A stretch of 60,040 nt of DNA. It comes from Phycisphaerae bacterium (GTDB taxonomy: Bacteria > Planctomycetota > Phycisphaerae > WQYP01). The position numbers and the translations under genes were made by a program. The stretch spans positions 1-60,040 of the forward strand of contig JBBRWV010000004.1 of NCBI GenBank assembly GCA_038248985.1, written 5' to 3'. Shown one piece after another: positions 12,466 to 49,419 of the stretch. The first letter of the stretch is position 1; each line of letters opens with the position of its first letter. The notes beneath the pieces are model-generated. The model had not been told where the DNA came from. It was given only the letters and a program-made list of their open reading frames with translations, and ran no database searches.

Positions 12466-13644
12466 ATGCAAATCGCCGCCGCCCTCAGCAGCATTGAGCC
12501 GCCCTCCCGCCTTGCCGAACACCTCGCCATGCAACTCGAATCACTGCACACGCACCCGGCGGATCTCATCACTCTCTTTGTGTCGCAACAGATCCAACCC
12601 AGCTTCTATGAAGTCATGGCCCACATCCGCACAGCCATGCGGCCCCGGCATCTGCTGGCCGTCACTGCCGAGTCCGTTATCGGCAACGATCAGGAACTCG
12701 AACGCATCCCCGCCGCGTCGGCACTCGTCATGCACCTGCCCGGTGTGGAGGTCGACACTTTTCACATTGCCGAAGACGAGTGGCCGGAAATGCTCAACGA
12801 CGATGACCGTCTGCGGCAGCGCATCGATCGCCCCAACCTGCGCGGCATCATTCTTCTGGCCGAACCGTACACCACGCCCATCGTCCAGTTCCTGGATGCG
12901 TGCGCCCGCATCCTTCCCCATGCCCCGGTCATCGGTGGGATGGCGTCCGGCATGACGCAGGCCGGCGAAGCTCGCCTGGCTGCCGATGATTTTGTCCACT
13001 CGACAGGGATTGTCGGTTGCACTTTCTCCGGCAACATTCAGATCGACACCATCATCTCGCAGGGGTGTCGCGCCATCGGTCCGGAGTTCACGGTCACCGC
13101 GTGCCATCGCAACGTCATCGAAGAACTCGACCACCAGCCTGCCTTCTCCACGTTCCAGCAGATGGTCGCCCTCCTGCCGCTGCACGACCAGAACCTCCTC
13201 AACAACTTTGGCCCGCCACAAATCGGGCGGAAAGTCACCGGCGTTACCGGCAGTCTCAATCGGGGCGATTTTCTCATTCGCGCAATCGTCGGGGTGCGCC
13301 GCGACCTCAACCAGATTCTCATCGGCGATGTACTCTCCGAAGGCGACATCGTCCGCTTCTATGTCCGTGATGCCCAAACTGCCGACGAAGAACTGCGACT
13401 CCTGCTCGAAGGCGAAACGCTCCTCGGGGCTGATCCTCTGGGCGCCATGCTCTTCAGCGGTACCAGCCGCGGAACGCGCCTATTCCCCCAGCCCAATCAC
13501 GACGTCTCCATCGCGCGCAATGTCCTCGGAAAAATCCCCATCGCCGGCTTCTTCGCCGCCGGTGAAATCGGTCCGGTCGGAGGAAGGTCCTTTATCCACG
13601 GCCACACCGCAGCGCTCGCCCTCTTTCGCAAAATCGAAGAGTAG
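12466..13644 (+). CDS. FIST (N+C) domain sensory protein
   Basis: 392 aa. The C-terminal block LFSGTSRGTRLFPQPNHDVSIARNVLGKIPIAGFFAAGEIGPVGGRSFIHGHTAALALF matches the FIST_C pattern. Confidence 0.75.
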   Translation: MQIAAALSSIEPPSRLAEHLAMQLESLHTHPADLITLFVSQQIQPSFYEVMAHIRTAMRPRHLLAVTAESVIGNDQELERIPAASALVMHLPGVEVDTFHIAEDEWPEMLNDDDRLRQRIDRPNLRGIILLAEPYTTPIVQFLDACARILPHAPVIGGMASGMTQAGEARLAADDFVHSTGIVGCTFSGNIQIDTIISQGCRAIGPEFTVTACHRNVIEELDHQPAFSTFQQMVALLPLHDQNLLNNFGPPQIGRKVTGVTGSLNRGDFLIRAIVGVRRDLNQILIGDVLSEGDIVRFYVRDAQTADEELRLLLEGETLLGADPLGAMLFSGTSRGTRLFPQPNHDVSIARNVLGKIPIAGFFAAGEIGPVGGRSFIHGHTAALALFRKIEE

Positions 13645-15819: not shown

Positions 15820-16221
15820 GTGCCTGCCAAACCCGCTGCGCAACCCCTCGCCAAGCCAGCCGAGGATCTCATCAGTGTCGATTACCTCTCTGGCGTCTGC
15901 ATCGTGACCCTCCTCACCCACGAGCTCAATTCCTCCACATCTGAAGAACTTTCCACGCAACTCCTCGCCCTCCTTAACAACGCTAAATCCTATAAATTCG
16001 TCCTCGACTTCGACTCCGTTCGCTACATGGAGTCCTCCTGCTTTGGCACGCTCGTCACTTTCCTCAAATGGCTCTCGCGCTTCGACGGCCAGGTCGTTCT
16101 CGCCAACGTCTCAGAAAACATCCGCTTCCTCTTTCACGTCACCGCGCTGGACAAGGTTTTTCCCATCCACCCCACCACCGAGTCCGCCCTCAACTTTCTG
16201 ACCCGCGGAGAACTGGGCTGA
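15820..16221 (+). CDS. STAS-domain anti-sigma-factor antagonist-like protein
   Basis: 133 aa, GTG start. LDFDSVRYMESSCFGTLV corresponds to the SpoIIAA-type LDLS.V.FMDSSGLG block with the phosphorylatable Ser retained. Confidence 0.75.
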   Translation: MPAKPAAQPLAKPAEDLISVDYLSGVCIVTLLTHELNSSTSEELSTQLLALLNNAKSYKFVLDFDSVRYMESSCFGTLVTFLKWLSRFDGQVVLANVSENIRFLFHVTALDKVFPIHPTTESALNFLTRGELG

Positions 16222-17141: not shown

Positions 17142-19025
17142 TCAGCGATAAAGCCGAACCTCAAATATCCGGGCATGGTCCAGCCCATGCGTGGCCAGAA
17201 CGGTGATCCGCAAAGCGGCAAATGGCTTGAGCACATCCAATGTATGACGGCGCAATCGCTGATAGTTGCCCGTGACCTGCAAAATATCCCGTCATTGTCC
17301 GTTAATCAGGACTGAAACGGCGTAATCGCGCACCGTTTCGGGTTGTGGTTGCCCCCAAAGTTGCTGGGCGTTGCAGCCATCCGATTGCGAAAGCGTCAGC
17401 TCGCAATGCAGGCCGGTATCAAAAATAATTTGCAATTGGCTCGCCGAAGTTGGGTTCATGAATTCCAGTTGTAGATGTGCCGGAAAGCCCGCTGCCGAAT
17501 CGGACATCCAACGATGGGCTGTCTGATTGTCATGAGCGCGTCCGACCGGAGCGCGCCGTTCGCCGTGGACACAACGCGTTTGCCCCGAGGTCACGCACGT
17601 CGCCGGCCCCAACGGCTGTTCAGATGACGCAGTAACTTTGGCGGTACGCGCAAGATCTTTTGCATCCTGATTAAGCTGCCCTACCAGATAACAATCGTCC
17701 CGCAGAAGTTGCTGTTGTAGCGCGTGAAGCGAATTTGGATCGGATGTAAGCGACGCCGGGGAAGTTTCTGGCTAATCGCGTATGCCGCGACCGTTCCAAC
17801 CCCCTGCCCAACCACCGCACAGGTGGCCATAACCCGCGTCGAGGCAAACGCAACGTGGGTTGCCGATATGTCGCGCCCCGCGAAAAGCAAATTGGGAACC
17901 GTGCTGCTGATGCACGACCGGAGAGGAATGTCATACACGCACGGAACGGGGTAAGGGGTATAGGGCGGAAGTTCGGGACGGTCCACACCCTCTGGTGGGT
18001 GGATGTCTATGGCCCAACCGCCATAGGCAATTGCATCGGGCTGGGGCAAGCCTGAAAGTACGCCCGACTCATGCAAAATATGTTGTCCAATGAACCGACG
18101 GCTTTCGCGCTTGCCCGGAATCCACCCGAACCAATCCAAAGCCCAGTTGGTGGCAAGTTCTTTATCCGGTCCGTTCTTAAAATAGTCCCAGATGTCTAGT
18201 GTGATGGCGAGGCATTCTTCCTGGATGGGGGCGTTGTCCTTAATTGTGTGGAGTTGTCCTCCCCACTCCGCCCACAAGTATCCGTATTCAAATCCCATAT
18301 TTGGGCCGCTGCCTTTGTAGGGGCGGAATTTGAAATCTTCTGGCTTGAACTTACGAACCCACGGCGAGGCGACGAAGGGAAGCGGCCGGTCATGTTTGCG
18401 GGCGGTAAAGAGAATCGTCGAACCCAGGGTTTTGTGATCAGGAACGGATTGGGCGTATTACTCACCGAAATCCGTCTGGCCTTCGCGACCATGACGGAAA
18501 GACGCGGAAGCTTCGGCGCCGAGGCGGCCGTCGCCAGTGCAATCGACGAAAATCGTCGCCGCAATACGAAAGCGATCTTCGGTGGACGAGCGATCGGCCA
18601 ACGCCGCTTATGATCGTATCGCCGCTCTTTTCAACCCCGACAACCGTGGTATTGAGCAGGAGCGTGATATTGGGCTCCGCACGAACTTTTTCATACAGGA
18701 TAAGGTCGAGCAAGGAAGCCGAACGCTGGGGGTTACGAACGGCCAGTTCCAGGCGGATTTCTTCCATGATTCCGCCTTCGCGCGTTTCCGTAAGCAGAGC
18801 GCGGTTGCGTCCCCGGCAGCCGTGTTGATCCGCCCCCACAATATGCATGCGGATTTCGGACGAGGCATTTCCGCCGAGAACTGGTCGATCCTGAATCAGA
18901 ACGACCGAAGCGCCGTTGCGCGCCGCCGCAATGGCGCACGGGACGCCGGCCGGGCCTCCGCCCGCAACGACGATATCGCAGGAGAGGAGCTGGAGAGTAA
19001 CGAGCGGCGTAAGGTCTTCGCGCAT
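17142..19025 (-). pseudogene. FAD-dependent oxidoreductase with a C-terminal discoidin-like domain, inactivated by 2 frameshifts and 2 nonsense codons
   Basis: The homologous reading runs through three frames. From 19025: [34 protein letters not shown], frameshift near 18600; then [34 protein letters not shown] at 18458-18460. Next YAQS..GFEYGYLWAEWGG..FAGRDISATHVAFASTRVMATCAVVGQGVG, frameshift near 17750-17770. Finally SDPNSLHALQQQLLRDDCYL..VSVLINGQ, TGA at 17292-17294, then RDILQVTGNYQRLRRH..ALRITVLATHGLDHARIFEVRLYR, stop at 17142. Confidence 0.8.
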
Positions 19026-19172
19026 GTGGAAACCTAGGGAGATGGGAGATGTTAATGAAGGATTGACTACGTTAGCCACTGAAAAAAACCACTGTCCAGC
19101 CGCTAATTCGCTTTGTCCTGAAAACGGCGTGCTACAATCACACGCGACCCCGCGCATTTTGGAGCCGAAGAG

Positions 19173-20189
19173 ATGAGTGTCGTACCTATCACCAACGTTA
19201 TTCGCCGACTGAGTATCGTTCATGCCACAACTTACAGCTATGACCAGACGGTGACCAAGTCGGCCCACCGACTGCATCTGCGGCCGATCAACGATTGGCG
19301 ACAGCACGTCAGTGCCTATTCCCTGACAACGAATCCGCCGGTGGACGTCGTGGAATTTGAAGATGTTTTCGGCAACTTCATGGCCCGGTTTGACATCAAC
19401 ACACCGTATGCCGAGCTCTCAATCCGCGCCGAGAGCGTCGTGGAAGTGTTGGATATTGATCCCTTTCTATTCACGAAGAACCTGGCGAATCGACCCACGT
19501 TGCCGCTGGTGTGGATGCCGTGGGAATTAAAGATGCTGCAACCCTATCTGACACCGCAGGAATTGCCGGATACGCAATTGAAGGAGATATATGATTTCAC
19601 GACAGGGATCGCGGCACAGAATAATCAGGACATATTGGAGACATTGTTCGCGATCAACCTGACGCTATTCAAGGATTTCAAATATGTGCCGGGATCGACC
19701 ACGAATGCGACGACGCCCTTCGAAGTGTTGATGAACAAACAGGGAGTATGCCAAGATTTCGCGAATCTGTTCATCACCATGGCCCGGCTGCTGAGCCTGC
19801 CCGCGCGGTATGTGTGCGGATACATCTACACGGGGAACACCGGAGAGGCCCGGGCACAGTCGGACGCCTCGCATGCGTGGGTGCAGATTTACATTCCGAA
19901 TGCGGGCTGGAAAGACTTTGACCCGACGAATGGCAACATCCCGCATCTGGATCATGTGCGCGTCGGATACGGACGGAATTGGCGCGATACTGCGCCGGCG
20001 GCGGGGACGCTTTACTCGCCGGCCAATGAATTGATGAAAATTGATGTGCAGGTGATAGACCTGGCGAATGATCAACGAATGAAAACCCCGTTCACGCAAA
20101 TGACCAATCATGCATCAGGTTCTGCACCGCGATCAAGCACCACGGCGCAGGCACAGCAGCGCGGCCCCGGTGCTTCCGTGAAGGGGTGA
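19173..20189 (+). CDS. transglutaminase-like cysteine peptidase family protein (Bact_transglu_N + core)
   Basis: 338 aa. N-terminal [18 protein letters not shown]; Cys-His-Asp triad context [11 protein letters not shown] / [11 protein letters not shown] / DFDPTNG. Confidence 0.85.
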
Positions 20190-20362
20190 TACACGGCCCA
20201 CTGTTACGGGCAATCGGACACGGATTCTGTGCTGGCATAGCGGGGAGGGGTCTGCTATTCTTTTCAGCGGCGAGAGAAAATCCATTCAAGGAAACGTAGG
20301 GACTTAGTCACACCGTAGCTTGCGCGCGGTGGATGCATTGTTTTGTCTGGAGTTTCCGACGC

Positions 20363-23300
20363 ATGGCCATACATGTTGCACTCAATCATGTCACCCATTA
20401 CCAGTACGACCGCATGGTCAACATGTCGCCGCACATCGTGCGTCTGCGTCCGGCGCCGCACACGCGCACGCCCATCCATGCGTATTCACTGAAAATCACG
20501 CCCGAAGCGGGGAAACATTTCATCAATTGGCAGCAGGACCCGTATTCCAATTATCTAGCCCGGCTGGTTTTTCCAGAACCTGCCAAGGAATTGCGCGTGG
20601 AGGTAGACCTGGTCTGCGAAATGACGGTGATCAACCCCTTTGATTTTTTTGTGGAAGCATCGGCGGAGAAATCGCCGTTTGTTTATGAGCCGATTCTGCG
20701 GAAAGAATTGCTGCCCTATTTTGAAACGAGTGCGCCGGGGCCTTTGCTGGCGGCGCTGGTCAAGAAGCTGAAACGCAAGGACATTCGCACCATCGACTAC
20801 ATCGTAGAGATCAATGCGACACTGAACCGGATGCTGAAGTATCTGATCCGGTTGGAACCGGGTGTCCAAACGCCGGAAGAAACGTTGCAGACAAAGCTGG
20901 GATCATGCCGGGATTTCGCCTGGCTGCAGGTGCATTTGCTGCGGCATTTGGGCATGGCGGCGCGTTTTGTGTCGGGATATCTGATACAACTCGTGGCGGA
21001 TGTAAAGTCACTAGACGGGCCGTCGGGGACGGAAGTGGACTTCACCGATCTGCACGCCTGGGCCGAGGTGTATCTGCCGGGCGCGGGATGGATCGGGTTG
21101 GATGCCACATCAGGGCTGTTGACCGGCGAGGGGCATATTCCGCTGGCCTGCACGGCGGAGCCAATCTCCGCGGCGCCCATCACCGGTGCAACGGACACCT
21201 GTGAATCAGTATTGAAGCATACGATGTCCGTGCGGCGTGTGTATGAAGATCCGCGAGTGACGAAGCCCTATACCGATGAAGAGTGGTTGGAAATTGAAGC
21301 GCTGGGGCACCTGGTCGATCGCAAGTTGAAGGCTGGGGATGTGCGTTTGACGATGGGTGGCGAGCCAACATTCATTTCGATCGATGATATGGATGGCGCG
21401 GAGTGGAACACGGCGGCCATGGGGCTGCTGAAGAGAAAACTAGGTGGGCAGTTGTTCAAGCGCCTGCGAACGCGATTTGCCGCGGGCGGCTTTTTGCATT
21501 TTGGACAGGGGAAGTGGTATCCCGGCGAATCTTTGCCGCGCTGGGCGCTGGGATGCTATTGGCGGAAGGATGGCCAGCCGATCTGGCAGGAGCCAGCGTT
21601 GATCGCCGACGATGAAACGGATTACGGCCATGGCGAAAAGGACGCGAAGCGTTTCATCACTGAGCTGGCGCATCGCCTGGGGGTGGCGCCGGAGTATGCA
21701 CTGCCCGGATATGAAGATGCGTTTTACTATCTGTGGAAAGAGCGGAGATTGCCAACGAACGTCGATCCGTTCGACAGCAAGTTGGAGAACCAGGAAGATC
21801 GGGCGCGACTGGCCAAGGTATTTGAACAGGGGCTTGAGAAGGTGGTGGGTTATGCCCTGCCGTTGAAGCCGACCGGGCGGTCTGCGGCGCGATGGGCATC
21901 GGGGAGTTGGCGCTTCCGTGCAGAGCGAATGTATTTGTTGCCGGGGGATTCGCCGATGGGATTCCGGCTGCCGCTGGATTCACTGGCCTGGGTGACGAAG
22001 AGCGACTATCCGTCGGTGTACGAGCGTGACCCGTTTGAAGTCGTGCCAGCATTGCCTGAACCGCGCTTGGCGCGGCAAAGATACATAGGAAAACCTACGG
22101 AGACGAGCACACCTGAAGGCGATCGCGAGCAGAAGTTGGATGGCCCCCCCACCACACTTGATCGTGCGGCACTCGAAGGTGTAGGGATGGCGCATCCGCA
22201 TGCCATCGGAAAAATTGCATCGGGAGGCTATGAGGAACCTACCAGTGGCGCGGCGATGGGCGTGGGGAAATCCGCGATCTTGACGCTGGGAAAATCTGCG
22301 CCGAACGCCATTCGCACGGCGTTGTGTGTGGAGACCCGAAAAGGGAAATTGCACATATTCATGCCCCCGATGCGCTACATCGAAGACTACATCGATCTGG
22401 TGGAAACCATTGAAGAGACGGCGTCAAAACTGAAAACGCCGGTGGTGATTGAGGGTTACACGCCGCCCCACGATCCACGGATCAATCATTTGAAGGTAAC
22501 GCCTGATCCGGGCGTGATCGAAGTGAACGTGCAGCCGGTACACACGTGGGACGACGCCGTGAAGGTGACCAACGGACTGTATGAGGATGCGTACTATTCG
22601 CGATTGGGCACCGATAAATTCATGGTCGATGGGCGTCACTCGGGAACGGGTGGCGGGAACCATATTGTGGTCGGCGGGGAGGTGCCTCAAGATTCGCCGT
22701 TTTTGCGGCGGCCCGATCTGCTAAAGTCGCTGGTGGCATACTGGCACAATCATCCTTCCTTGTCGTACCTCTTTTCCGGCCTGTTTATTGGTCCGACCTC
22801 CCAAGCGCCGCGCGCCGATGAAGGGCGATCGGACAATCTGTACGAGTTGGAAATTGCAATACAGCAGGTGAAGCCGGGCATTGCTCCGCAACCGTGGCTG
22901 GTAGATCGATTGTTCCGAAACCTGCTGATCGATCTGACGGGCAATACCCATCGCGCGGAATTCTGCATCGACAAGATGTATTCACCGGACTCCTCGAGCG
23001 GGCGGTTGGGCCTCGTGGAATTCCGCGGTTTTGAGATGCCACCGCACCCGCGGATGTCGCTCACGCAGCAATTGCTGTTGCGTTCGCTGATAGCGCGGTT
23101 CTGGGAAAAGCCCTATGACGCGCCACTGGTGCGCTGGGGCACGGAATTGCACGACCGGTTTCTTCTGCCGCATTTTGTTTCCGCCGATTTTGAGGACGTG
23201 CTTTCGGGCCTCAATTCCGCGGGATTTCCCTTAATGAAAAAGTGGTTTGCGCCGCACTTTGAGTTTCGGTTTCCCATTCACGGATATGTGGATTTGGCAC

Positions 23301-23818
23301 ATATTGGGGGAATCCACTTGGAACTCCGGCAGGCAATCGAGCCATGGAACGTGCTGGGCGAAGAGCCGGCCGGCGGCGGGACGGCGAGATTTGTCGACTC
23401 GTCGGTGGAGCGGTTGCAAGTAAAAGTGACCGGCCGCGTGAACCCGCGTCATGTGCTGGCGGTCAACGGTGTGGCGGTTCCTCTGCACAACACCGGTCGT
23501 GTGGGTGAGTTTGTCGCCGGGGTGCGCTATCGGGCGTGGCAGCCGCCCTCGTGTCTGCATCCGACAATTCCAGCCCATGGGCCGCTGGTTTTCGACCTGG
23601 TGGATACGTGGAATGACAAGTCTGTCGGGGGATGCACGTATAATGTGGCTCACCCGGGCGGGCGGTCTTACGATGATTTCCCGATCAATGCGTTTGCTGC
23701 CGAGGCACGGCGCGTGGCACGATTCTTCAAGTTTGGCCATACTCCGGGAACGATCAAGGTCCGGACGGTGACCCCTTCGCTGGAGTTTCCCCTCACGATG
23801 GACTTGCGCAGGTCATAG
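20363..23818 (+). CDS. large transglutaminase-like protein with a C-terminal DUF2126 (GS-like putative amidoligase) region
   Basis: About 1151 aa from the ATG at 20363 (MAIHVALNHVTHYQYDR). Transglutaminase triad LGSCRDFAWLQ / DLHAWAEVYLP / GLDATSG. The long C-terminal region with GRHSGTGGGNHIVVGG is typical of DUF2126. Confidence 0.8.
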   Translation: MAIHVALNHVTHYQYDRMVNMSPHIVRLRPAPHTRTPIHAYSLKITPEAGKHFINWQQDPYSNYLARLVFPEPAKELRVEVDLVCEMTVINPFDFFVEASAEKSPFVYEPILRKELLPYFETSAPGPLLAALVKKLKRKDIRTIDYIVEINATLNRMLKYLIRLEPGVQTPEETLQTKLGSCRDFAWLQVHLLRHLGMAARFVSGYLIQLVADVKSLDGPSGTEVDFTDLHAWAEVYLPGAGWIGLDATSGLLTGEGHIPLACTAEPISAAPITGATDTCESVLKHTMSVRRVYEDPRVTKPYTDEEWLEIEALGHLVDRKLKAGDVRLTMGGEPTFISIDDMDGAEWNTAAMGLLKRKLGGQLFKRLRTRFAAGGFLHFGQGKWYPGESLPRWALGCYWRKDGQPIWQEPALIADDETDYGHGEKDAKRFITELAHRLGVAPEYALPGYEDAFYYLWKERRLPTNVDPFDSKLENQEDRARLAKVFEQGLEKVVGYALPLKPTGRSAARWASGSWRFRAERMYLLPGDSPMGFRLPLDSLAWVTKSDYPSVYERDPFEVVPALPEPRLARQRYIGKPTETSTPEGDREQKLDGPPTTLDRAALEGVGMAHPHAIGKIASGGYEEPTSGAAMGVGKSAILTLGKSAPNAIRTALCVETRKGKLHIFMPPMRYIEDYIDLVETIEETASKLKTPVVIEGYTPPHDPRINHLKVTPDPGVIEVNVQPVHTWDDAVKVTNGLYEDAYYSRLGTDKFMVDGRHSGTGGGNHIVVGGEVPQDSPFLRRPDLLKSLVAYWHNHPSLSYLFSGLFIGPTSQAPRADEGRSDNLYELEIAIQQVKPGIAPQPWLVDRLFRNLLIDLTGNTHRAEFCIDKMYSPDSSSGRLGLVEFRGFEMPPHPRMSLTQQLLLRSLIARFWEKPYDAPLVRWGTELHDRFLLPHFVSADFEDVLSGLNSAGFPLMKKWFAPHFEFRFPIHGYVDLAHIGGIHLELRQAIEPWNVLGEEPAGGGTARFVDSSVERLQVKVTGRVNPRHVLAVNGVAVPLHNTGRVGEFVAGVRYRAWQPPSCLHPTIPAHGPLVFDLVDTWNDKSVGGCTYNVAHPGGRSYDDFPINAFAAEARRVARFFKFGHTPGTIKVRTVTPSLEFPLTMDLRRS

Positions 23819-23901
23819 GTCAAAAAAACTACGGAATTCTGACTGCAGAAATCAGAAATTTAGGTCGATCTCCATTATTCTGAATCTCATGGTTCTGCAT
23901 C

Positions 23902-26568
23902 ATGCAGAACCCTTGGCCGCCGGACCCGAACTCTATGCAAACTGACCTGCCCACCAACATGGAAGACGATTCGCCCCCACCCGGGGCGGCCGAGTTGCCA
24001 CCACGGCAGACCCAAGACCGTCCCACGCACTCCGGGTTATGCGGCGCGTACGTCCCGCCAGCAACTATCTTCGATGAAATGGAAGAACGTGATGGCTCGG
24101 TGCGGCCGCACTGGAACATGTTTGTCAACCTGCTCGATGATCTGGGGCCCACAGAATTGCATCGGCGGTGGGACACGGCCCGGCAGTTGATCCATGACAA
24201 CGGCGTTACGTACAACGTATATGGCGATCCTGCGGGGATGGATCGCCCATGGAATCTGGACGCAATTCCCATGCTGTTTGGGCCGGAAGAATGGCAGCGG
24301 CTGGCCGATGGGTTGACGCAGCGGGCACGCTTGTTTGACGCAATTCTGTTCGACATTTACGGGCCCCAACGCACTCTGCATGAGGGAATACTGCCGCACG
24401 AACTCATTTTTTCCCATCCCAATTTCCTGCGCCCCATGCACGGCGTGCAGACGCCGGGATCGCGGTGGATGCATCTATACGCGGCTGATGTTTGCCGAGG
24501 TCCGGACGGGAATCTGTGGGTAATGGGCGATCGGACGCAGGCGCCGTCGGGGGCGGGTTATGCTTTAGAGAATCGGCTGGTGATCAGCCGGGCCCTGCCG
24601 GATGTATTTCGCGATTGCCGCGTGCGCCGATTGGCTACCTACTTCCGCACGATGCGCGAGACCCTCAAAGCGTTGGCGCCGCACGATCGCGATAATCCGC
24701 GCATCGTCCTGCTGACTCCGGGCCCGTACAACGAAACATACTTTGAGCACGCCTACCTGGCTCGATACCTGGGGTACACGCTGGTGGAAGCCGGCGATTT
24801 GACGGTGCGCGATAACCACGTCTACCTGAAAACGCTCGGAGGTTTGCAGCAGGTCGATGTCGTATTGCGGCGTCAGGACGATGATTTCTGCGATGCGTTG
24901 GAATTGCGAAATGAATCCACCCTGGGCATACCGGGGCTCGTGCAAGCCGTGTACGCGGGGAACGTGGCGATCGCCAATGCCCTGGGGTCGGGGATTCTTG
25001 AAACGCCGGCGCTTCTGGGATATCTGCCGCGACTATGCAAATTTCTGCTGGGCGAAGAGTTGAGAATGCCGTCGGTCAACTCCTTCTGGTGCGGCGAGGC
25101 GACGGGGCGCAGCCATGTGCTGGCAAATCTGCATCGAATGGTAATTAAGCTGTTTTGTCCGGGGCCCAAGCGCGAAGTGCTTTTTGGCAAACAACTCAGC
25201 CAGAGGCAATTGGAGGATCTGCGGGCACGAATTCTGGCTTGCCCGCGCGAATTTGTCGGTGAGGAGCAAATCACGCTGTCCACGGCGCCGGTGTTGGTGG
25301 GGAATAAAGTGGTGCCGCGGCACGTCTCGATCCGGGCGCACCTCGTGGCGACTCCGGATGGTTACGCCGTGATGCCGGGTGGGTTGACGCGATTCTCCGC
25401 GTCGGCCGACACGATGGTGGTATCGATGCAAAAGGGGGGTGGGTCGAAGGACACGTGGGTGTTGTCGGGCGGGCCGGTCGACCCGTTTTCGTTGCTTCAG
25501 CCGGCCGGTCAAGCGGTGGAAATCAACCGATCAGGCGGTGATTTACCCTCTCGAGTGGCGGATAATCTCTATTGGTTGGGGCGCTATATGGAGCGTGCCG
25601 AGGGACTCGCTCGCGTGTGCCGGGGAACCTTGGCGCGCCTGGCGGACACCAACCTGGAAGCCGCGCCGGAGCTGCTGACATTGCTGACCACGCTGTCACG
25701 CGAAGGGTCGGGCGAGGGCACCACCGAGAAGGCAGATCTGGCGGCGCACCCAGAGCAGCGATTGGCCCGCATTCTCTTTGATGAAACGTATCCCCAAGGC
25801 CTGCAGTCAACGCTCGGATCGATCTACCGGATCGCCAGCCTGGTGCGTGACCGCATCTCGGTCGATACTTGGCGAATCATTAACCGCTTCGACGAGGACT
25901 TTCCGTCAACCGGAAATCTAGATGTGCAGATCAACGAAATTTTGCCCGCGCTCGACCGCCTGATTATCACCTTCGCGGCGTTCGGCGGTCTGGCGATGGA
26001 ATCCATGACGCGCGGACATGCGTGGCGCTTTCTGGACATGGGCCGTCGAGTTGAACGTTCCCTGCAGCTGATCGCATTGTTGCGCGGCACGCTGGCCCAA
26101 AGCATTCGTCGCGAGTCGGCGTTGCTCGAAGCCGTGCTCGAAATTGCCGACAGCGCCCTGACTTATCGGCGACGCTATTTGAGCACCTTACAGGTGGCAC
26201 CGGTGCTCGATCTTCTCCTGTGCGATGAATCCAATCCGCGAGCGGTGGCCTTTCAGTTGAGCTGGCTGACGGAGCATGTCGAAGCATTGCCGCGTGCGGG
26301 AGGAACCACCAAACGCAGCGCCGAGGAACGCATTCTGTTGCGCATTTTGACCGCCGTTCGCTTGCTCGATGTAAACGCCGAAGCCACCGTGGATGCCAGC
26401 GGCCGGCGCCCGCGACTGGAGCATTTACTTACCGCTTTGAGCACAGATGTTTATTCGCTCTCGGACATGATCAGCCAAAGCTACCTGAGCCACGCAGTGG
26501 CGAGTCGCCAGTTGGGAACCATGATACACAACATAAGACATGACACGCATTTTCAGATCGACACATAG
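23902..26568 (+). CDS. fusion protein: circularly permuted type-2 ATP-grasp domain + alpha-E domain
   Basis: 888 aa. The N-terminal half ([54 protein letters not shown]) is paralogous to 28887..30410. From about aa 545, SRVADNLYWLGRYMERAEGLARV is paralogous to 30477..31478. Confidence 0.85.
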   Translation: MQNPWPPDPNSMQTDLPTNMEDDSPPPGAAELPPRQTQDRPTHSGLCGAYVPPATIFDEMEERDGSVRPHWNMFVNLLDDLGPTELHRRWDTARQLIHDNGVTYNVYGDPAGMDRPWNLDAIPMLFGPEEWQRLADGLTQRARLFDAILFDIYGPQRTLHEGILPHELIFSHPNFLRPMHGVQTPGSRWMHLYAADVCRGPDGNLWVMGDRTQAPSGAGYALENRLVISRALPDVFRDCRVRRLATYFRTMRETLKALAPHDRDNPRIVLLTPGPYNETYFEHAYLARYLGYTLVEAGDLTVRDNHVYLKTLGGLQQVDVVLRRQDDDFCDALELRNESTLGIPGLVQAVYAGNVAIANALGSGILETPALLGYLPRLCKFLLGEELRMPSVNSFWCGEATGRSHVLANLHRMVIKLFCPGPKREVLFGKQLSQRQLEDLRARILACPREFVGEEQITLSTAPVLVGNKVVPRHVSIRAHLVATPDGYAVMPGGLTRFSASADTMVVSMQKGGGSKDTWVLSGGPVDPFSLLQPAGQAVEINRSGGDLPSRVADNLYWLGRYMERAEGLARVCRGTLARLADTNLEAAPELLTLLTTLSREGSGEGTTEKADLAAHPEQRLARILFDETYPQGLQSTLGSIYRIASLVRDRISVDTWRIINRFDEDFPSTGNLDVQINEILPALDRLIITFAAFGGLAMESMTRGHAWRFLDMGRRVERSLQLIALLRGTLAQSIRRESALLEAVLEIADSALTYRRRYLSTLQVAPVLDLLLCDESNPRAVAFQLSWLTEHVEALPRAGGTTKRSAEERILLRILTAVRLLDVNAEATVDASGRRPRLEHLLTALSTDVYSLSDMISQSYLSHAVASRQLGTMIHNIRHDTHFQIDT

Positions 26569-26594
26569 AATCTGGGTTGAAAGGCGCGGCATTC

Positions 26595-27488
26595 ATGCCC
26601 CAATATCGCATACGTCATCTCACCCGTTATACATACGAGGAACCCGTGTCGGTCTGCCACAACCTGGCACATTTGCTGCCGCGCCAAAGCCCCCGCCATT
26701 TTTGGTCGTATGCCGATCTGGAGATTTCCCCGGTGCCCGCCGTTCATTCGGAACGAATCGATTACTTCGGAAATCGCCTGACTTTTTTTGCGATTCAGGA
26801 GCCGCATCGCGAACTCAACGTTCTTGCGAAATCGATTGTCAAGATTGAACCCACAGGCGAAGAAAATATAAGCCTCTTCGGCAGCCCCGCGGCTGCGTCG
26901 TGGGAATCCGTTCGTGACCACATGTGCGAGCGGCTCTGGGGAGACGATCTCGAGGCGTCACAGTTCGTGTATGAATCGCCCGGCGTCCAGGCCACCCCCG
27001 AAGTCCATGATTATGCCCAAGTAAGCTTCACGCCCAACCGGCCCATCGGCGAGGCCCTGCTCGACCTGACCTCGCGAATCCACCATGAATTTGTCTACGA
27101 TACCAAAGCGACAACGGCCACGACGACTCTCCCGGAAATCATGAACGCCCGTCGCGGCGTCTGTCAGGATTTCGCCCATCTGCAAATTGGCTGCTTGCGA
27201 TCCCTCGGGCTTCCCGCACGTTATGTTTCCGGATATCTCCTGACGGTGCCTCCGCCGGGAACTGCCCGGTTGGTCGGGGCGGATGCTTCCCATGCGTGGC
27301 TCAGTTTGTATATTCCCGGCCATGGGTGGCTGGACATTGACCCGACCAATGATCTGATTCCTTCGGAAAAGCACATCACCATTGCCTGGGGACGGGATTT
27401 CGGCGATGTTTCACCATTGCGCGGGGTGATATTGGGTGGCGGCAAACATACCATTCATGTTTCCGTCGATGTTTCTCCGTTAAAGTAG
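26595..27488 (+). CDS. transglutaminase-like cysteine peptidase family protein
   Basis: MPQYRIRHLTRYTYEEPVS start at 26595. Triad RRGVCQDFAHLQ / ASHAWLSLYIP / DIDPTND. Confidence 0.85.
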   Translation: MPQYRIRHLTRYTYEEPVSVCHNLAHLLPRQSPRHFWSYADLEISPVPAVHSERIDYFGNRLTFFAIQEPHRELNVLAKSIVKIEPTGEENISLFGSPAAASWESVRDHMCERLWGDDLEASQFVYESPGVQATPEVHDYAQVSFTPNRPIGEALLDLTSRIHHEFVYDTKATTATTTLPEIMNARRGVCQDFAHLQIGCLRSLGLPARYVSGYLLTVPPPGTARLVGADASHAWLSLYIPGHGWLDIDPTNDLIPSEKHITIAWGRDFGDVSPLRGVILGGGKHTIHVSVDVSPLK

Positions 27489-27496
27489 CTCCGCCA

Positions 27497-28693
27497 ATGC
27501 GTCTAAGGAGTCCGAGCGTGAACCCCAAAGAATCCACTGATGATCAAACACTCGACCTGCTGGCGCACACGCCCTTTCCCAAGCTGGCCCAAGCCCTGCG
27601 CGTTCGCATTCCCTCCGTCATCCTCAAGTGGGAAGCGGCGGTGGTGGTTATTTTACCCAAGGCCGACACCCTGACTCTGAAAGAATTGCGCAACTCCCTG
27701 CCCCAGATTCTGGTGAAGATTGCGGATGCCTTGGAAACGGATGAGGCCGGCCCAACGCAGGACCTGATCGAAGGCAGCAAAATTCATGGTATTGCACGAA
27801 TTCATGATGAATACAATGTGTGCGAATTGCTCGTAGAGTACCGCCTCCTTCGACGAATTCTTTTTGAACAAGTGGCCGAACAACTCGATGAACCCGTCAG
27901 CAAGAACCAGATGATCGCGCTGAACATGGCCGTTGACACCACCATTCAGAGCGGAATAGTGGCCTTCACTGATTTTCAACGGGGGCAAATCAAGGCGGGG
28001 TCGGAGGTTCAAGCTAAATACCTTTCCTTTCTTTCGCATGACCTGCGCAACCATTTGAACCATGCAACGTTGACCCTGGAACTTCTGGGGCGACGCCTGG
28101 AACGAAACCCGGGGTTCACCGAAAGCGTCAAGGACGTCGTTTCAATTCAGCGGAGTATTTTCCAGACCATTGCGGGCATGGACCGTTTGCTTAGGGCCGA
28201 ACAGTTGCGCAATCAAAGCATCAAACTCAACCTCGGGCCCGTGGACCTCCAACGTATGTTTGCGGAAGTCGTCAGCATTGCTTTTTCAGAGGCGCAGGCC
28301 AAGGGGCTTTCGATCGACGCCATCACCCCCTCGGGCGCACAAATAGTCAGTGATCGCGACTTGCTGATGCTGGTCTTGCACAATCTGGTGGGCAACGCCG
28401 TCAAGTACAGTTCTAGGGGCAAAATTCAAATTAGCGCCGATGAAGCGCCGGATCCTGCGCGTGGCTGGATATTGAGTGTCAGTGATCAAGGTCCGGGGAT
28501 CGCTCCGGAACACCTGCAGCATCTGTTTGAAGCATTTCGACGTGGTGACACGCATGGGCAGTCCGGACTGGGTCTGGGCCTATCCATCGCGTCGCACGCG
28601 GCGAAATTGCTGGATGGACGGCTGGAGATTGATTCGACCGTCGGAAAAGGCTCGACATTCTCACTGCATCTCCCGGCCGCAAAATCTACGTAA
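27497..28693 (+). CDS. cytoplasmic sensor histidine kinase with an RsbRD_N-like (globin-fold) N-terminal domain; no adjacent response regulator
   Basis: H-box FLSHDLRNHLN, N-box LVGNAVKYS, G1 DQGPGI, G2 GLGLGLSI. No hydrophobic TM segment. The N-terminal ~170 aa (VILKWEAAV..LRNSLPQIL..IHGIARIHDEYNVCELLVEYRLLRRIL) fits the RsbRD_N pattern. Starts 8 nt after the upstream stop. Confidence 0.85.
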   Translation: MRLRSPSVNPKESTDDQTLDLLAHTPFPKLAQALRVRIPSVILKWEAAVVVILPKADTLTLKELRNSLPQILVKIADALETDEAGPTQDLIEGSKIHGIARIHDEYNVCELLVEYRLLRRILFEQVAEQLDEPVSKNQMIALNMAVDTTIQSGIVAFTDFQRGQIKAGSEVQAKYLSFLSHDLRNHLNHATLTLELLGRRLERNPGFTESVKDVVSIQRSIFQTIAGMDRLLRAEQLRNQSIKLNLGPVDLQRMFAEVVSIAFSEAQAKGLSIDAITPSGAQIVSDRDLLMLVLHNLVGNAVKYSSRGKIQISADEAPDPARGWILSVSDQGPGIAPEHLQHLFEAFRRGDTHGQSGLGLGLSIASHAAKLLDGRLEIDSTVGKGSTFSLHLPAAKST

Positions 28694-28886
28694 GGCTGGG
28701 ATGCCGCTCAACTGCGCATCGCGGCCCCCCTTTCCCGCGCCAACTGCCTAATGTCAAGGCACCACTTCGAGTAATATCCCCATTATCCTGCCAAAAACGA
28801 CGGCGAAAGTCGGAACTCGCTTTGCGGTGCCTGGTTCCATTATGATGCCATTTCAAACAGCAACGGCGGACCTGAAACCTTCACGG

Positions 28887-30410
28887 ATGTCCATGACGAA
28901 GCTCGACTTTGCGAATTACGCAACCGACGGCTACTTCGACGAACTGTTCGAAGCAACGGGGAAACCGCGCGCTGGTTCAGCGTTACTCACCCAGCGAATT
29001 GCCTCCCTCCCGGCCGGAGAGTTGCTGGCGCGCCAGAAGGCAGCCGAGGCGGCCCTCCTGCAAATGGGAATCACCTTCGCCGTCTACGGTGACAAATCCG
29101 GAACGGAAAAAATCTTCCCCTTTGACTTGATTCCTCGGGTCGTGGAAGCGGCCGACTGGGCAGTTCTGGAACGTGGTCTCAAACAGAGAACGCACGCGCT
29201 CAATTGCTTCTTGACGGATATCTATAACGAGCAAAAAATTGTCAAGGACAAGGTGATTCCTGCAGAACTAATCCTGTCAGCAACCACCTTCCGCCGACAG
29301 ATGGTGGGCTTCACGCCGCCCAAAGGCATTTGGGCGCATGTGACCGGTACCGATTTGGTTCGCGATACCGACGGACAATTTTACGTGCTTGAAGACAACA
29401 TGCGCTGCCCGTCCGGCGTCTCTTATGTATTGGAAAACCGGGAGATATTGAAACGTACGCTGCCAAAAGTGTTCGAAGCCTGCGGCGTGCGTCCGGTGCA
29501 TGAATATCCGAATCGCCTGCGCGAAATGCTGCAATATCTGGCGCCCGAAGGCCTGACCAATCCGAACGTGGTGACGCTGACGCCAGGGATCTACAACTCC
29601 GCATATTTCGAGCATTCCTTTCTGAGCCAGCAAATGGGCGTTCCATTGGTCGAGGGGCGAGATCTGGTAATTCGCGAGGGGTACGTGATGATGCGTACAA
29701 CCAAAGGATATGAACGTGCGGATGTAATCTACCGCCGAATAGATGATGATTTCCTGGATCCCAAGGCCTTCCGTGCGGATTCGTTGCTGGGCGTGCCGGG
29801 AATCATGGAGGTCTACAAGGCGGGTCGCGTAGCGATGGCAAACGCGCCGGGGACTGGCATCGCCGACGACAAGGCGGTTTACGCGTTCGTCACCAAGATC
29901 ATTAAGTATTACCTCGGCGAGGAAGCCATCCTGCCCAACGTACCCACGTTTGTATGTTCCGACCCCAAGGATTGCGCCCACGTGGTGGCCAATATCCAAA
30001 ACATGGTAGTCAAAGCCGCCAATGAATCCGGGGGCTACGGCATGCTTATCGGCCCGCACTCTTCCCGACAGCAGTGTGAAGAATTCAAGCTGAAGGTATT
30101 GGGCAATCCCCGGAACTATGTGGCCCAGCCGATGGTGGCGCTGTCGCGCGTGCCGGTGATTGTGGACGACCATTTTGAGGGCCGTCATGTGGATTTGCGG
30201 CCGTACATCCTGAACGGAAAGGATATTTACGTGATGCCGGGGGGCTTGACGCGCGTGGCGCTGCGCAAGGGCTCGATCGTGGTAAACTCCTCGCAGGGCG
30301 GAGGATCTAAAGATACTTGGGTGCTCAGCGATGCACCCGCCAGTGATAAACTGAAGAGTTCCAGTCAAAGTCAATCTCAGCACCAGGCGATGGGCGATGA
30401 TGAGTTCTGA
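28887..30410 (+). CDS. circularly permuted type-2 ATP-grasp protein (stand-alone)
   Basis: [75 protein letters not shown]. The start is uncertain: in-frame candidates at 28827 (GTG), 28842, 28887 and 28893. Confidence 0.85.
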
Positions 30411-30476
30411 TTGACAAATCAGCAATGATCGATGGCGGAAGGCTTTGATCCACCAGTCGTTTACACCGGAGGGTTC

Positions 30477-31478
30477 ATGCTCAGTCGCGTGGCAGAATCA
30501 ATTTACTGGATGAACCGCTACATTGAGCGGGCGGATAACGTGGCGCGCTTCGTTCTCGTCAATTTGCACCTCATGCTGGATATACCCGGTGGCGGCGTAA
30601 TTGGCGTCGGCGGGCAATGGCAACCCTTAATCTGGACGACGGGCGATGACAAACTTTTTTTGAAGCGCTATCCAGAACCCGGCTCCGAAAATGTCATGCA
30701 GTTCCTCACCTTCGATGGTGAAAACCCCAACTCGATTATCTCCTGCATTCGCAGTGCCCGTGAAAACGCCCGGACGATCCGCGAATCCATCTCCTCCGAA
30801 ATGTGGATCACGCTCAACCGCTTCTATCTGCTGTTGACCGATCCTGACGCTCCCACGCGCGCCGCCAACGATCCCCATGCTTTTTATTCAGACATCCGCA
30901 CCGCATGCTCGCTTTTTGCGGGTGAAGCGGAAGGAACAATGTCACACGGCGAGGGATATCACTTCGGCGAGATCGCCAAGATGATTGAACGCGCAGACAA
31001 AACCTCGCGCATCCTCGACGTGAAATATTTCATTTTGCTGCCGAAAGTAGAGAACGTCGGCATGCCGATTGATACACTTCAATGGGCGGCATTATTGAAG
31101 TCCGCCTCCGCGTTGGAAATGTACCGCAAGCAATACGCCACTATCACTCCCAAACGCGTCAGTGAATTTCTGCTGCTCAACCGGGAATTCCCTCGCGCTG
31201 TGCGCTACTGCCTCGGTCGCATCGAGGATTCCCTGCGCGCCATCACCGGCACATCCCTTGAAACTTTCTCCAACCCCGCAGAGCAAAAACTGGGGCGGTT
31301 ACTTGCGGATATGACGTACACGAATATTGATGAGATCACCAAAAACGGCCTGCACGAATACATTGATTCGCTGCAACTTCGCCTCAATACACTTGACGAT
31401 GCGATCTACCACACGTTTTTTGAAGTAAAGCCAGTGGAAACCGTGAAGGTGGGATCCGAAGAGGAAGTTACGATTTAG
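30477..31478 (+). CDS. alpha-E domain protein (stand-alone)
   Basis: MLSRVAESIYWMNRYIERADNVARF is the typical alpha-E N-terminus. The ORF-track start at 30432 is also possible. The 3' end overlaps convergent anmK by 11 nt. Confidence 0.85.
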   Translation: MLSRVAESIYWMNRYIERADNVARFVLVNLHLMLDIPGGGVIGVGGQWQPLIWTTGDDKLFLKRYPEPGSENVMQFLTFDGENPNSIISCIRSARENARTIRESISSEMWITLNRFYLLLTDPDAPTRAANDPHAFYSDIRTACSLFAGEAEGTMSHGEGYHFGEIAKMIERADKTSRILDVKYFILLPKVENVGMPIDTLQWAALLKSASALEMYRKQYATITPKRVSEFLLLNREFPRAVRYCLGRIEDSLRAITGTSLETFSNPAEQKLGRLLADMTYTNIDEITKNGLHEYIDSLQLRLNTLDDAIYHTFFEVKPVETVKVGSEEEVTI

Positions 31479-32752: not shown

Positions 32753-34216
32753 TCATCGCGCCCCCGCCAGCACCGGCAACGTCGTGGCCGTCGCCCAGCG
32801 CGTTTCCATAGCCTCCAATTCCTGCATCGCCGGTGAAACGTTGAAATTCACTACCTGCGCTTGCTGCCGCAACTCGGGCGGCACCTCGCACATAACCCGC
32901 ACCGCAGACATCACATCCTGCGCCGTTATTTCTTCCGGGAGCCGCGCCAACGCGTAAGAGTGCTCGAGGGTGACATGGACCAGCCCGGCTTGCACCAACG
33001 CGACCAGCAACTGTTCGCAAATTTCGTTGGGTATCATGAGTTCCTCTGCCGCTTCGTGCGACCGCAGAGCCTTCCCCTCGCGGAAACGACGGTACAGGAC
33101 CACGGCCAGAGACAGGGCCCATTTGAGGTCGGAAAGGGGAACAGGAGTCTTGCGCATGAAAAAATAGCGCCGTTTGAGCATGTACCAATATTGATGCATG
33201 TAGCTGATCTGCAGCCCGATGAGGATGAAAGTCCACGTAACGTATATCCACATCATAAAGAGCGGGAGAATGGCCAGCGAGCCGTAAAAATTACTGCCCC
33301 CGATGGAGCGTTCCACGTAAAAGCCAAAACCCGCTTTTCCACCTTCCCACAGAACCGCCCCGACAAATGATCCCATCAGAGCCGACTTCCACTGCACATG
33401 CGTTTCAGGAACTATCTTGTAAAGCAGCAGAACCAGCCCCCACGAAACCAGAAAACTCGTCACCAGGTTAATCGTGCTGACCAGCCATCCAAAATGGGCA
33501 TACGAGTCCGCCGTGGAAAAGGCGAGGCGGCCGAGCGTCAGAGATACACCGACACCGATCGGACCGAGCGTCAGCACGCACCAGTAGAGCAATATGCGGC
33601 GCGACCAACTCCTCCCCTTAATGACACGGTAAATCTGGTTGAACGCGCCTTCGATCACCACCATCAGCGATATGGCCCCGTACAGCAGGATCGCCAACGC
33701 AACCAGCCCCGTGACTGTGGTCTTGGAAGTCACCGAATTCTTCGCTTTCTCGAGCAGCGGCCGGATGGAATCCGACAGCATAAGCGGGTCGCCATATTCA
33801 TCGAGCGCAGGCTTGCCGTCCTTGTCCAGCATGGGCATTTTATCAAGCTGCAACTGCTCAAAAAGTTTCGATTGGACAACTCGGTCCAACTTGTTCTGGC
33901 TGGATATCGCCCCCAATACCAATAGTGCCAGAACCAGTATCGGCAGCAGCGAAAACAACGTCTTGTACGCGAGGGCTGCGGCCTGTTCGAAAGTTTCTTC
34001 TTCGTCAAATCGCTGCTTGAGAATATTGAAAATCAGCAGGCCTCGCGGCCACAAACTCTTGGCGATTCTCCGCCGACGCTGTTGCGTCTCACGTTTCCAG
34101 TTCTCGGAAACTCCGCCACCTTCAGCGCCGCCGCCCGGTTTCTCATTCATAGTCTTTCCCACCATTTTCAAAACCCTCCCTTCAAGCAACTGCAACTGCC
34201 AGGTGGGACGTGACAC
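32753..34216 (-). CDS. YihY/BrkB-family membrane protein fused to a C-terminal Rrf2-like winged-helix domain
   Basis: FEQAAALAYKTLFSLLPILVLALLVLG and six TM segments typical of YihY. The C-terminal ~130 aa (LKWALSLAVVLYRRFREGKALRSHEAAEELMIPNEICEQLLVALVQAGLVHV...ARLPEEITAQDVMSAV) follow the Rrf2 wHTH pattern. GTG at 34216; alternative ATG at 34150. Confidence 0.7.
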   Translation of the reverse strand: MSRPTWQLQLLEGRVLKMVGKTMNEKPGGGAEGGGVSENWKRETQQRRRRIAKSLWPRGLLIFNILKQRFDEEETFEQAAALAYKTLFSLLPILVLALLVLGAISSQNKLDRVVQSKLFEQLQLDKMPMLDKDGKPALDEYGDPLMLSDSIRPLLEKAKNSVTSKTTVTGLVALAILLYGAISLMVVIEGAFNQIYRVIKGRSWSRRILLYWCVLTLGPIGVGVSLTLGRLAFSTADSYAHFGWLVSTINLVTSFLVSWGLVLLLYKIVPETHVQWKSALMGSFVGAVLWEGGKAGFGFYVERSIGGSNFYGSLAILPLFMMWIYVTWTFILIGLQISYMHQYWYMLKRRYFFMRKTPVPLSDLKWALSLAVVLYRRFREGKALRSHEAAEELMIPNEICEQLLVALVQAGLVHVTLEHSYALARLPEEITAQDVMSAVRVMCEVPPELRQQAQVVNFNVSPAMQELEAMETRWATATTLPVLAGAR

Positions 34217-42055: not shown

Positions 42056-42136
42056 GAATCGCTCCACATGCAACGTCGCGGTCAATTGTCCTCGCATTGC
42101 GCGGAGAGGACAAGGTGGAATTGTCAGATTGGACGA

Positions 42137-42811: not shown

Positions 42812-42883
42812 TTCAGCGGTGAATTATCGAGGGAACCGGGGGAATTATCAATTCCAAAGTGCGAATTCCGCGTCGCAGAGGGT

Positions 42884-43825: not shown

Positions 43826-43865
43826 AAGCGTTTCCTTGCTTATTCCTAATTTTCTAGGCTTTGAT

Positions 43866-43894
43866 ATATAAGCATAGTTGCCGCTCGGTGTAAA
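43866..43894 (-). promoter_or_regulatory. sigma70-like promoter candidate for the DUF1559 gene
   Basis: On the - strand, TTTACA-17 nt-TTATAT in an AT-rich gap, then AAGGAA 7-8 nt before the ATG at 43825. The promoter consensus for this lineage is not established. Confidence 0.3.
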
Positions 43895-43931
43895 GGTCTT
43901 TCTGGAAATTTATACGGCCCCCCTACCGGTT

Positions 43932-44954: not shown

Positions 44955-45220
44955 GGCAGATCCTCCAAAGTCGTTCAGTGCGAAATGTTTGGTCCACGAG
45001 TGGGAATACTTAAAACAAGAGACATGCCACGGGGTGAGCGTGGCTTGGTGGAGGCCAGAATGGGGAAAACAGGGGGGAAATGGGGGGATTTGGTGGGATG
45101 GAGGGATTGTTGGGGTAGTGGACAGGGGAGGATTTTTGCCAGATGTGGCAAACGGGGGTGACGGGTACGCCAGCGATGGCAGGGCGGTATGGGATTTTCA
45201 AGGAGCGGGGGATGATGGCG

Positions 45221-49405: not shown

Positions 49406-49419
49406 AGAAGGGACTTCTT

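Follow-up and report, generated by a model that had tools for sequence, protein, structure and literature searches.

A Phycisphaerae gene cluster as a likely copy of a widespread ligase/transglutaminase system with an intact and a degenerate ATP-grasp

A peptide synthesis or modification system made up of circularly permuted ATP-grasp (cpATP-grasp) and Alpha-E proteins, transglutaminases, in some cases Anbu, and a transglutaminase joined to a COOH-NH2 ligase was reportedly predicted by Iyer, Abhiman, Burroughs and Aravind in 2009, and the prediction is said to be reflected in the Pfam texts of CP_ATPgrasp_1, Alpha-E and DUF2126. Genes of Mycobacterium tuberculosis and Pseudomonas presumably belong to this system; in M. 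tuberculosis we take Rv2409c-Rv2411c to encode the unfused ATP-grasp, Alpha-E and transglutaminase proteins, and Rv2566-Rv2569c to encode a transglutaminase-DUF2126 protein, an ATP-grasp/Alpha-E fusion and a further transglutaminase. The stretch of DNA analysed here, 60,040 nucleotides from a Phycisphaerae bacterium (contig JBBRWV010000004.1; hereafter the window), contains at positions 19173-31478 a cluster of seven open reading frames (ORFs), six of which encode conserved proteins of these families and the seventh a histidine kinase. We think it likely that the cluster is a copy of this widespread, uncharacterised ligase/transglutaminase system, in which two linked modules hold an active unfused and a dead fused ATP-grasp, a lineage-specific kinase has been inserted, and the proteins work by the mechanism proposed below.

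Structure papers on Anbu describe an operon of ATP-grasp, Alpha-E, transglutaminase and Anbu genes, credit a peptide-synthesis or tagging hypothesis to Iyer et al. 2009, and call the hypotheses unconfirmed (PMC6376114, PMC5666114). The first-pass annotation of the window, made from the sequence alone, had attributed the prediction to Iyer, Aravind and colleagues, and this agrees with the citing in both papers. Phosphate release from ATP was reported for the ATP-grasp of the Yersinia Anbu operon, and nitrogen limitation induces the Anbu operon in Pseudomonas putida (PMC6376114, PMC5666114). Anbu activity was not detected in published attempts (PMC6376114), and according to a 2026 preprint Rv2411c and Rv2567, uncharacterised ATP-binding candidates, made no gamma-aminobutyrate (GABA)-trehalose (10.64898/2026.04.15.718621). 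A full-text literature search returned no paper on DUF2126, nor one that assigns the system a function. The annotation had also held that no substrate or product had been shown, and none is reported in the searched literature.

The two ATP-grasp copies and their partner proteins

ORF calling found all seven genes of the first-pass annotation, all on the + strand (to which every coordinate in the cluster refers), and Pfam profile searches recovered the families it had named, with strong E-values for every family in all seven proteins. NCBIfam has no model that matches any of the six non-kinase proteins. The annotation had described the cluster as two paralogous amidoligase modules, and the paralogy is real: identity is 39% between the ATP-grasp domains over 469 amino acids (aa; E 2e-121) and 22% between the Alpha-E domains (E 3e-16), which fits the diverged paralogues it had seen. 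The modules are not, however, functional equivalents, since the fused ATP-grasp is missing motifs in which the unfused family does not vary.

The evidence for this difference comes from loci collected in one genome per GTDB species by a scan anchored on an alignment of the fusion protein. The survey comprises 80 loci, the best of a longer match list, with flanks of up to 10 kb, whose ORFs were classified against the window's own domains; an alignment of their ATP-grasp domains contains 29 unfused and 76 fused sequences. In the unfused family 128 columns are at least 95% conserved, of which 55 keep their residue in at least 90% of the fused proteins. The window's unfused cpATP-grasp (522 aa, 28842-30410, in an ORF open from 28827; CP_ATPgrasp_2 7e-166) carries all 128 conserved columns, including VLEDNxRxPSG, ADDK and GGYG, and its Glu184-x-Asn186-x-Arg188 motif (29385-29426) is invariant in the 29 unfused homologues. 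The start of this gene is most likely at 28842, where the protein would begin MMPFQ (compare MMSFL in relative L001), rather than at 28887.

In the fused family these motifs have decayed. Within V-L-E-D-N-x-R-x-P-S-G-V-S-Y the glutamate is replaced by glycine, alanine or serine, the asparagine by arginine (97%) and the arginine by glutamine (89%); A-D-D-K has become (L)-E-(T/S/N)-P, D-L-R-P has become V-L-R-x, and the lysine of K-x-x-x-E-S-G-G-Y-G-x-L-x-G-P is kept while the remainder is not conserved. The fusion protein of the window (877 aa, 23935-26568; CP_ATPgrasp_2 1.1e-153, Alpha-E 1.3e-73) follows this pattern. It has VMGDRTQAPSG for VLEDNxRxPSG (G-D-R-T-Q against E-D-N-M-R) in the degenerate motif VMGDRTQAPSGAGY at 24520-24561, which aligns to the motif of the unfused copy, and LETP for ADDK; its glycine loop is lost, KLFCPGPKREV having PGPKRE where the unfused copy has ESGGYG. 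The start at 23935 is the call made on a 99% identical contig (the alternative start, 23902, would give 888 aa), and a database look-up of the exact fusion protein sequence gave no record. Because the invariant motifs of the unfused family are lost across the 76 fused homologues, the fused cpATP-grasp is predicted to be a pseudo-ligase, inactive throughout the fused family, and the unfused copy is predicted to be the active ligase. The second ligase of the system is presumably DUF2126. The Pfam text of CP_ATPgrasp_1 reportedly describes inactive forms as often fused N-terminal to Alpha-E, a pattern that the present data reproduce.

The residues conserved in the unfused copy have familiar forms: we take E-x-N-x-R-x-P-(S)-G to have that of the ATP-grasp Mg2+/phosphate-binding motif, and K...E-x-G-G-x-G presumably resembles the lysine/glutamate/glycine-loop of glutathione synthetase. 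The nearest solved structure for the unfused ATP-grasp is PDB 3N6X (E 5.4e-161), which is annotated as "putative glutathionylspermidine synthase". The AlphaFold2 (AF2) model of the fusion, with a predicted local distance difference test (pLDDT) score of 71.5, matched 3N6X in a Foldseek search (E 4e-25), followed by eukaryotic glutathione and homoglutathione synthetases (~1e-8) and the Escherichia coli glutathionylspermidine synthetase/amidase GspS (4e-4).

The unfused Alpha-E gene (333 aa, motif SRVAESIYWMNRYIERADN, 30477-31478, alternative start 30432; Alpha-E 4.2e-100) begins 66 nt past the ATP-grasp stop. Fused and unfused forms keep a common Alpha-E core, S-R-x-A...W..R-Y-x-E-R...R with a second E-R and P-R. 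A sequence search of the PDB gave no relative of Alpha-E, and in the fusion model Alpha-E had no significant match by fold. That the paralogous pair is fused constitutes Rosetta-stone evidence, which suggests that the ATP-grasp and Alpha-E proteins interact.

The three transglutaminase domains of the cluster all have an intact triad. The small transglutaminase-like protein TG1 (338 aa, 19173-20189; Bact_transglu_N 3.7e-23, Transglut_core 2.9e-22) has its triad at Cys193/His234/Asp250. The transglutaminase-DUF2126 protein (1151 aa, 20363-23818; Bact_transglu_N, Transglut_core and DUF2126) has it at Cys192/His241/Asp257 when counted from the ORF start at 20333, the start at 20363 being the one that agrees with the database record. 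In TG2 (297 aa, 26595-27488, alternative TTG start 26577; Bact_transglu_N, Transglut_core) the Cys, His and Asp are likewise intact. When 117 transglutaminase domains from the window and related loci were aligned, the Cys was present in 117, the His in 116 and the Asp in 116, and all three window domains aligned with the conserved columns, so the intact triads reported in the first-pass annotation stand. The paralogue and transglutaminase motifs it quoted were all found as well, the six transglutaminase motifs where it had placed them. TG1 forms its own clade, roughly equidistant from the TG2-type transglutaminases and from those that follow Alpha-E genes, and a TG1-type gene is kept upstream of the DUF2126 gene in three relatives (L001, L085 and L084). 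The bit scores of TG1 to the TG2-type, the post-Alpha-E type and the Humisphaera transglutaminase are roughly equal and so do not assign its orthology.

The DUF2126 domain covers profile positions 1-826 of 826 (E=0, 1324 bits), and the protein is strongly conserved, with 60-75% identity to its best 120 homologues and 67% mean column identity over ~1100 aa, in both cases across phyla. Searches with the fusion and the DUF2126 protein each scored at least 8000 database proteins. The N-terminal transglutaminase part matches 3ISR, a putative cysteine protease of Cytophaga, and Pseudomonas aeruginosa TgpA both in sequence and in fold; for the DUF2126 part no PDB relative was found by sequence. The stretches of DUF2126 that are invariant include GTGGGNH and L-V-E-F-R-A-F-E, which we take to resemble motifs of glutamine synthetase (GS), a lead only.

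Linkage across genomes and the histidine kinase

The first-pass annotation had held that the large and small versions of these gene sets normally form separate operons, so that finding both in one locus would be special. The survey contradicts this. Of the 80, 44 species-level loci are fully flanked, that is, they extend for 9 kb or more to either side. DUF2126 adjoins the fusion gene in 30 of the 44. In 20 (45%) an unfused cpATP-grasp and Alpha-E pair is found no more than 10 kb from the fused gene, and 15 of these 20 are among the 30 that carry DUF2126. Planctomycetota, Verrucomicrobiota, Acidobacteriota, Myxococcota, Pseudomonadota and Fibrobacterota are all represented, so that the surveyed loci cover at least six phyla. 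If a multi-megabase genome carries one or two such pairs, a rough estimate puts chance adjacency within 10 kb below 1%. The observed adjacency is far above this estimate, and the linkage is therefore a property conserved in the system and not a peculiarity of this genome.

The arrangement of the genes varies. The commonest layout has, on one strand, the unfused pair, in some cases a transglutaminase, the transglutaminase-DUF2126 gene, the fusion and a further transglutaminase; rarer layouts place the unfused pair downstream, as in the window, or in divergent or convergent orientation, and all four relative orientations were seen. In nearly all surveyed loci the next gene after the fusion is of the TG2 type. 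As the orientations vary, the transcription units are probably linked but separable, and a single transcript is not conserved. Among close relatives, L001 (75% identity in the fusion protein) has the order transglutaminase, transglutaminase-DUF2126, fusion, transglutaminase, cpATP-grasp, Alpha-E, and L085 (69% identity) has the same six genes in this order; it is the order of the window, in both cases without the kinase. In L084 (67% identity) no unfused pair was found within 10 kb. In Humisphaera borealis (L107, CP063458.1, 2361132-2384713, with the cluster at about 2.367-2.378 Mb) the genes for cpATP-grasp, Alpha-E, transglutaminase, transglutaminase-DUF2126 and fusion are contiguous, and a calpain-type Peptidase_C2 gene on the opposite strand replaces TG2. 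This cultured member of the Phycisphaerae has a complete genome and could serve as a model for experiments. It is the broadly conserved linkage, not any feature unusual in this genome, that supports a functional coupling of the two modules, and in roughly half of the surveyed species the gene sets form a linked unit.

The orphan, soluble sensor histidine kinase (27497-28693; RsbRD_N, and HATPase_c at 1.4e-26) has the H-box SHDLRN at aa 180-185 (28034-28051); many NCBIfam histidine kinase models match it below their cut-off. It starts 8 nt past the TG2 stop and ends 148 nt short of the unfused ATP-grasp, leaving a spacer at 28694-28841. The first-pass annotation had read the kinase as the mark of one co-regulated pathway, which its distribution does not bear out. 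It was found in the window and in one metagenome contig that is 99-100% identical (L003/L087), and nowhere else; at the position between TG2 and ATP-grasp it is absent from L001, L085, L086 and all 80 survey loci, and it is missing from all 26 surveyed loci that have both modules. The nearest other relative of the kinase, at 57% identity, has no adjoining transglutaminase. No Response_reg domain was found among the kinase's neighbours at 9.9 to 40 kb of the window, and the window's only response regulator (55420-56112) follows another, PAS-domain kinase 25 kb away. In relatives the junction between TG2 and ATP-grasp is a spacer of 80-270 nt and a variable point of insertion, and in L086 (67% identity) a DinB gene stands where the window has the kinase. 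The kinase is best read as a lineage-specific gene inserted into a variable spacer, outside the conserved machine, and possibly provides local regulation in this lineage. A search for scars of the insertion gave only short, chance repeats, with no repeats in the flanks that would mark it, and GC content and third-position GC content (GC3) are like those of the neighbours.

Some further observations concern the kinase and its insertion point. The DinB-family gene in L086 lies at 13718-14209 on the - strand, and the spacer looks like a recurrent insertion point. The response regulator named above is part of a full two-component pair at 53846-56112 (+), a PAS-PAS-HisKA_3 kinase with an overlapping Response_reg/GerE regulator of the LuxR type, which is unrelated to the orphan kinase. 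A gene for a STAS-domain protein of the anti-sigma-antagonist type (15820-16221, +) precedes the cluster by 3 kb, and further upstream lies one for a FIST-domain sensor (12466-13644, +). The RsbRD_N domain of the kinase is, like the STAS protein, associated with partner switching, and the proximity may be coincidental.

Proposed mechanism and rival explanations

In the mechanism we propose, the unfused ATP-grasp with its Alpha-E partner would use ATP to activate a carboxylate as an acyl-phosphate, which would then be joined to an amine, and DUF2126 would make a second amide bond by carboxylate-amine ligation. The dead ATP-grasp/Alpha-E protein would partner DUF2126 as a non-catalytic scaffold or as a substrate-binding subunit. 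The three papain-like transglutaminase domains would hydrolyse or transfer the resulting amide, one of them being tethered to DUF2126 as the amidase is to the synthetase in GspS; the logic would also parallel that of PafA and Dop in pupylation. As the product, a small gamma-glutamyl-type molecule or a short peptide is weakly favoured over a protein tag because of the kinship with small-molecule ligases, because of the extreme conservation, and because no conserved tag gene was found: among the ORFs of at least 100 aa in the survey loci only Anbu recurs and the rest are generic, ORFs below 100 aa not having been surveyed.

Several points weigh against this interpretation. The profile search of the PDB found only 3N6X and gave no alignment to glutathione synthetase for residue mapping, and it is from motif form that E184/N186/R188 and the GGYG loop are taken as candidate Mg2+/ATP-binding residues. 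The AF2 model of DUF2126 is of low confidence (pLDDT 60), and although it repeatedly matches glutamine synthetases and gamma-glutamylmethylamide synthetase (GmaS), which is compatible with the predicted GS-like ligase, the matches are below threshold (E 0.17-1.3). The survey, drawn from the top of its match list, consists mostly of contigs of metagenome-assembled genomes (MAGs) with simple ORF calls. Pull-downs gave no stable complexes among proteins of the Anbu operon (PMC6376114), and no substrate, product or complex was found in the searched literature or in this analysis. Finally, Anbu was found near the DUF2126/fusion module in 8 of the 80 loci (L066, L067, L076, L077, L081, L082, L083 and L039; matches to Anbu structures with E down to 5.5e-64), a distribution that suits a role on proteins no less than one on small molecules. 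The loci with Anbu belong mostly to methanotrophs and other Pseudomonadota, and a divergent type of small transglutaminase joins in L067, L082 and L083.

These Anbu loci bear on the possibility that the system tags proteins in the manner of pupylation, the ligases attaching an amino acid or a peptide as the tag, the transglutaminases deconjugating or cross-linking, and Anbu, where present, degrading or processing the tagged proteins. Such tagging is the hypothesis that is credited to Iyer et al. (PMC6376114, PMC5666114); enzymes of the transglutaminase fold usually act on proteins, and the large helical Alpha-E could serve as a substrate adaptor. The association with Anbu in some loci keeps this model alive. 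Nevertheless, Anbu is absent from most loci and gave no tblastn match anywhere in the window, no tag gene recurs among the ORFs of at least 100 aa, the characterised enzymes nearest to the ATP-grasp in structure ligate small molecules, and the published attempts yielded neither Anbu activity nor complexes (PMC6376114). On balance we regard protein tagging as possible but doubtful. The assumption that the modules are functionally independent, with their proximity in the window meaningless, fares much worse. About half of the fully flanked loci have no unfused pair within 10 kb, the relative orientation varies, and in M. tuberculosis the two sets presumably lie far apart on the chromosome; but the 45% adjacency across at least six phyla stands against a rough chance below 1%, the linkage survives rearrangement into four orientations, and the fused copy, as a dead paralogue of the unfused pair, would seem to depend on a partner that is active. 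Independence therefore appears very unlikely.

The reading of the first-pass annotation holds that two amidoligase/peptidase modules, both active, are unusually joined here and that the kinase makes them one co-regulated, sequential pathway. In its favour, all genes lie on one strand with gaps of 8 to 173 nt, the kinase follows TG2 by 8 nt, and the ATP-grasp and Alpha-E copies are clear paralogues. However, the adjacency is common, the fused ATP-grasp is without the invariant motifs of the unfused family, the kinase is missing both in relatives with the same gene order and in every surveyed locus, no response regulator is nearby, and the divergent and convergent orientations across taxa show that a single transcript is not conserved. 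The parts of this reading that call the joining unusual and both modules active are largely refuted, and as a whole we judge it quite unlikely. A bolder version of our own interpretation would see one hetero-oligomeric machine, a two-ligase assembly line scaffolded by a pseudoenzyme (the dead paralogue, DUF2126 and the active pair), placed in this lineage under a stress-sensing kinase of the RsbRD_N type. It seems to us rather improbable, but if true, a single machine under kinase control would give a system predicted in 2009, and without a known function since then, its first physiological signal. Under the preferred interpretation, a copy of the conserved two-module system with one active and one dead ATP-grasp, reconstitution experiments are best designed with the fused ATP-grasp in a non-catalytic role. 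The system is very widespread and no experimentally known substrate or product was found for it, so that solving its function would matter. The locus itself adds little leverage, as it makes the question no easier to test than many other loci do, and what the kinase hints about regulation is weak and confined to one lineage.

Genomic setting and comparison with known systems

The window is ordinary chromosome, with genes for RNase E/G, cytidylate kinase, glycogen phosphorylase, branching enzyme, PntAB, adenylate kinase, phosphoenolpyruvate carboxykinase (PEPCK) and H+-pyrophosphatase, and the named relatives of the cluster proteins are MAGs of Phycisphaerae and other Planctomycetota. At one end the cluster borders on an opposite-strand FAD-oxidoreductase gene that is split, and at the other on an AnmK gene that converges with it. 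The flanking genes vary in every relative compared, and the unit is therefore taken to extend from TG1 through Alpha-E. A link to polyamines through a nearby arginine decarboxylase gene was considered and rejected, as the flanking genes change in every relative. Membership in an anti-phage defence system was rejected too: with the PADLOC defence models the six conserved proteins had no match, and the kinase had only a weak match to a generic kinase. Rfam and tRNA scans of the window gave no matches, and a promoter/terminator scan of 18.3-32.8 kb gave counts at the level of shuffled sequence, which are uninformative on operon structure.

Some neighbouring features were noted in passing. The FAD_oxidored gene (17681-19307, -) is apparently split, with ORF 18462-19307 matching profile positions 1-123 and ORF 17681-18298 positions 259-408; the middle third of the profile is missing, and the intervening ORF 18196-18564 has no Pfam match. 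A frameshift or a truncation may have made it a pseudogene, or the assembly may be in error here; the long ORF at its upstream end shares 135 nt with the start of TG1. At 32753-34216 (-) a 487-aa ORF combines a BrkB/YihY-type membrane domain (Virul_fac_BrkB) with a C-terminal transcription-factor domain of the Rrf2 type, an unusual fusion. GC skew is negative across the blocks of - strand genes at 10-18 kb and 32-40 kb and unusually strong, +0.25 to +0.37, over 42000-52000, about 10 kb of + strand genes that include PntA/PntB and three ORFs without Pfam match (42236-43849, 43878-44435 and 45272-45898).

The systems with which the cluster can be compared range from a shared concept to a nearly complete match. 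The Pup ligase PafA and the depupylase Dop, carboxylate-amine ligases of the GS-like kind, share with it only the concept of a GS-like ligase that forms an isopeptide or amide bond and an enzyme that reverses it; there is no sequence match, neither a Pup-like gene nor a proteasome was found, and the GS-like fold of DUF2126 is weakly indicated. With E. coli GspS and eukaryotic glutathione synthetase the window copy shares the ATP-grasp fold (Foldseek E 1e-8 to 4e-4), and the pairing of a papain-like Cys amidase with an ATP-dependent ligase in GspS is mirrored in the window. However, the identity is 10-14% without a profile alignment, the peptidase is of the transglutaminase type and not CHAP, and nothing corresponds to Alpha-E. 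In the Anbu operon of Yersinia bercovieri, P. aeruginosa and other bacteria (PMC6376114, PMC5666114) the genes for ATP-grasp, Alpha-E and transglutaminase are shared and their order is conserved, but the operon ends in the proteasome-like Anbu and is without DUF2126 or the fusion, whereas the window is without Anbu; the eight survey loci mentioned above have both.

M. tuberculosis has the same two gene sets as the window, where they are contiguous. The closest likeness is to the system of Iyer and Aravind, all conserved parts of which are shared, including the predicted-inactive cpATP-grasp N-terminal to Alpha-E. The window differs in being without Anbu, in the extra TG1 upstream of DUF2126, which is a feature of its clade, and in the inserted orphan histidine kinase; relative to the commoner layout, its unfused pair lies downstream and not upstream. 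The locus is thus an added member of an already predicted system, with a minor, lineage-specific kinase insertion.

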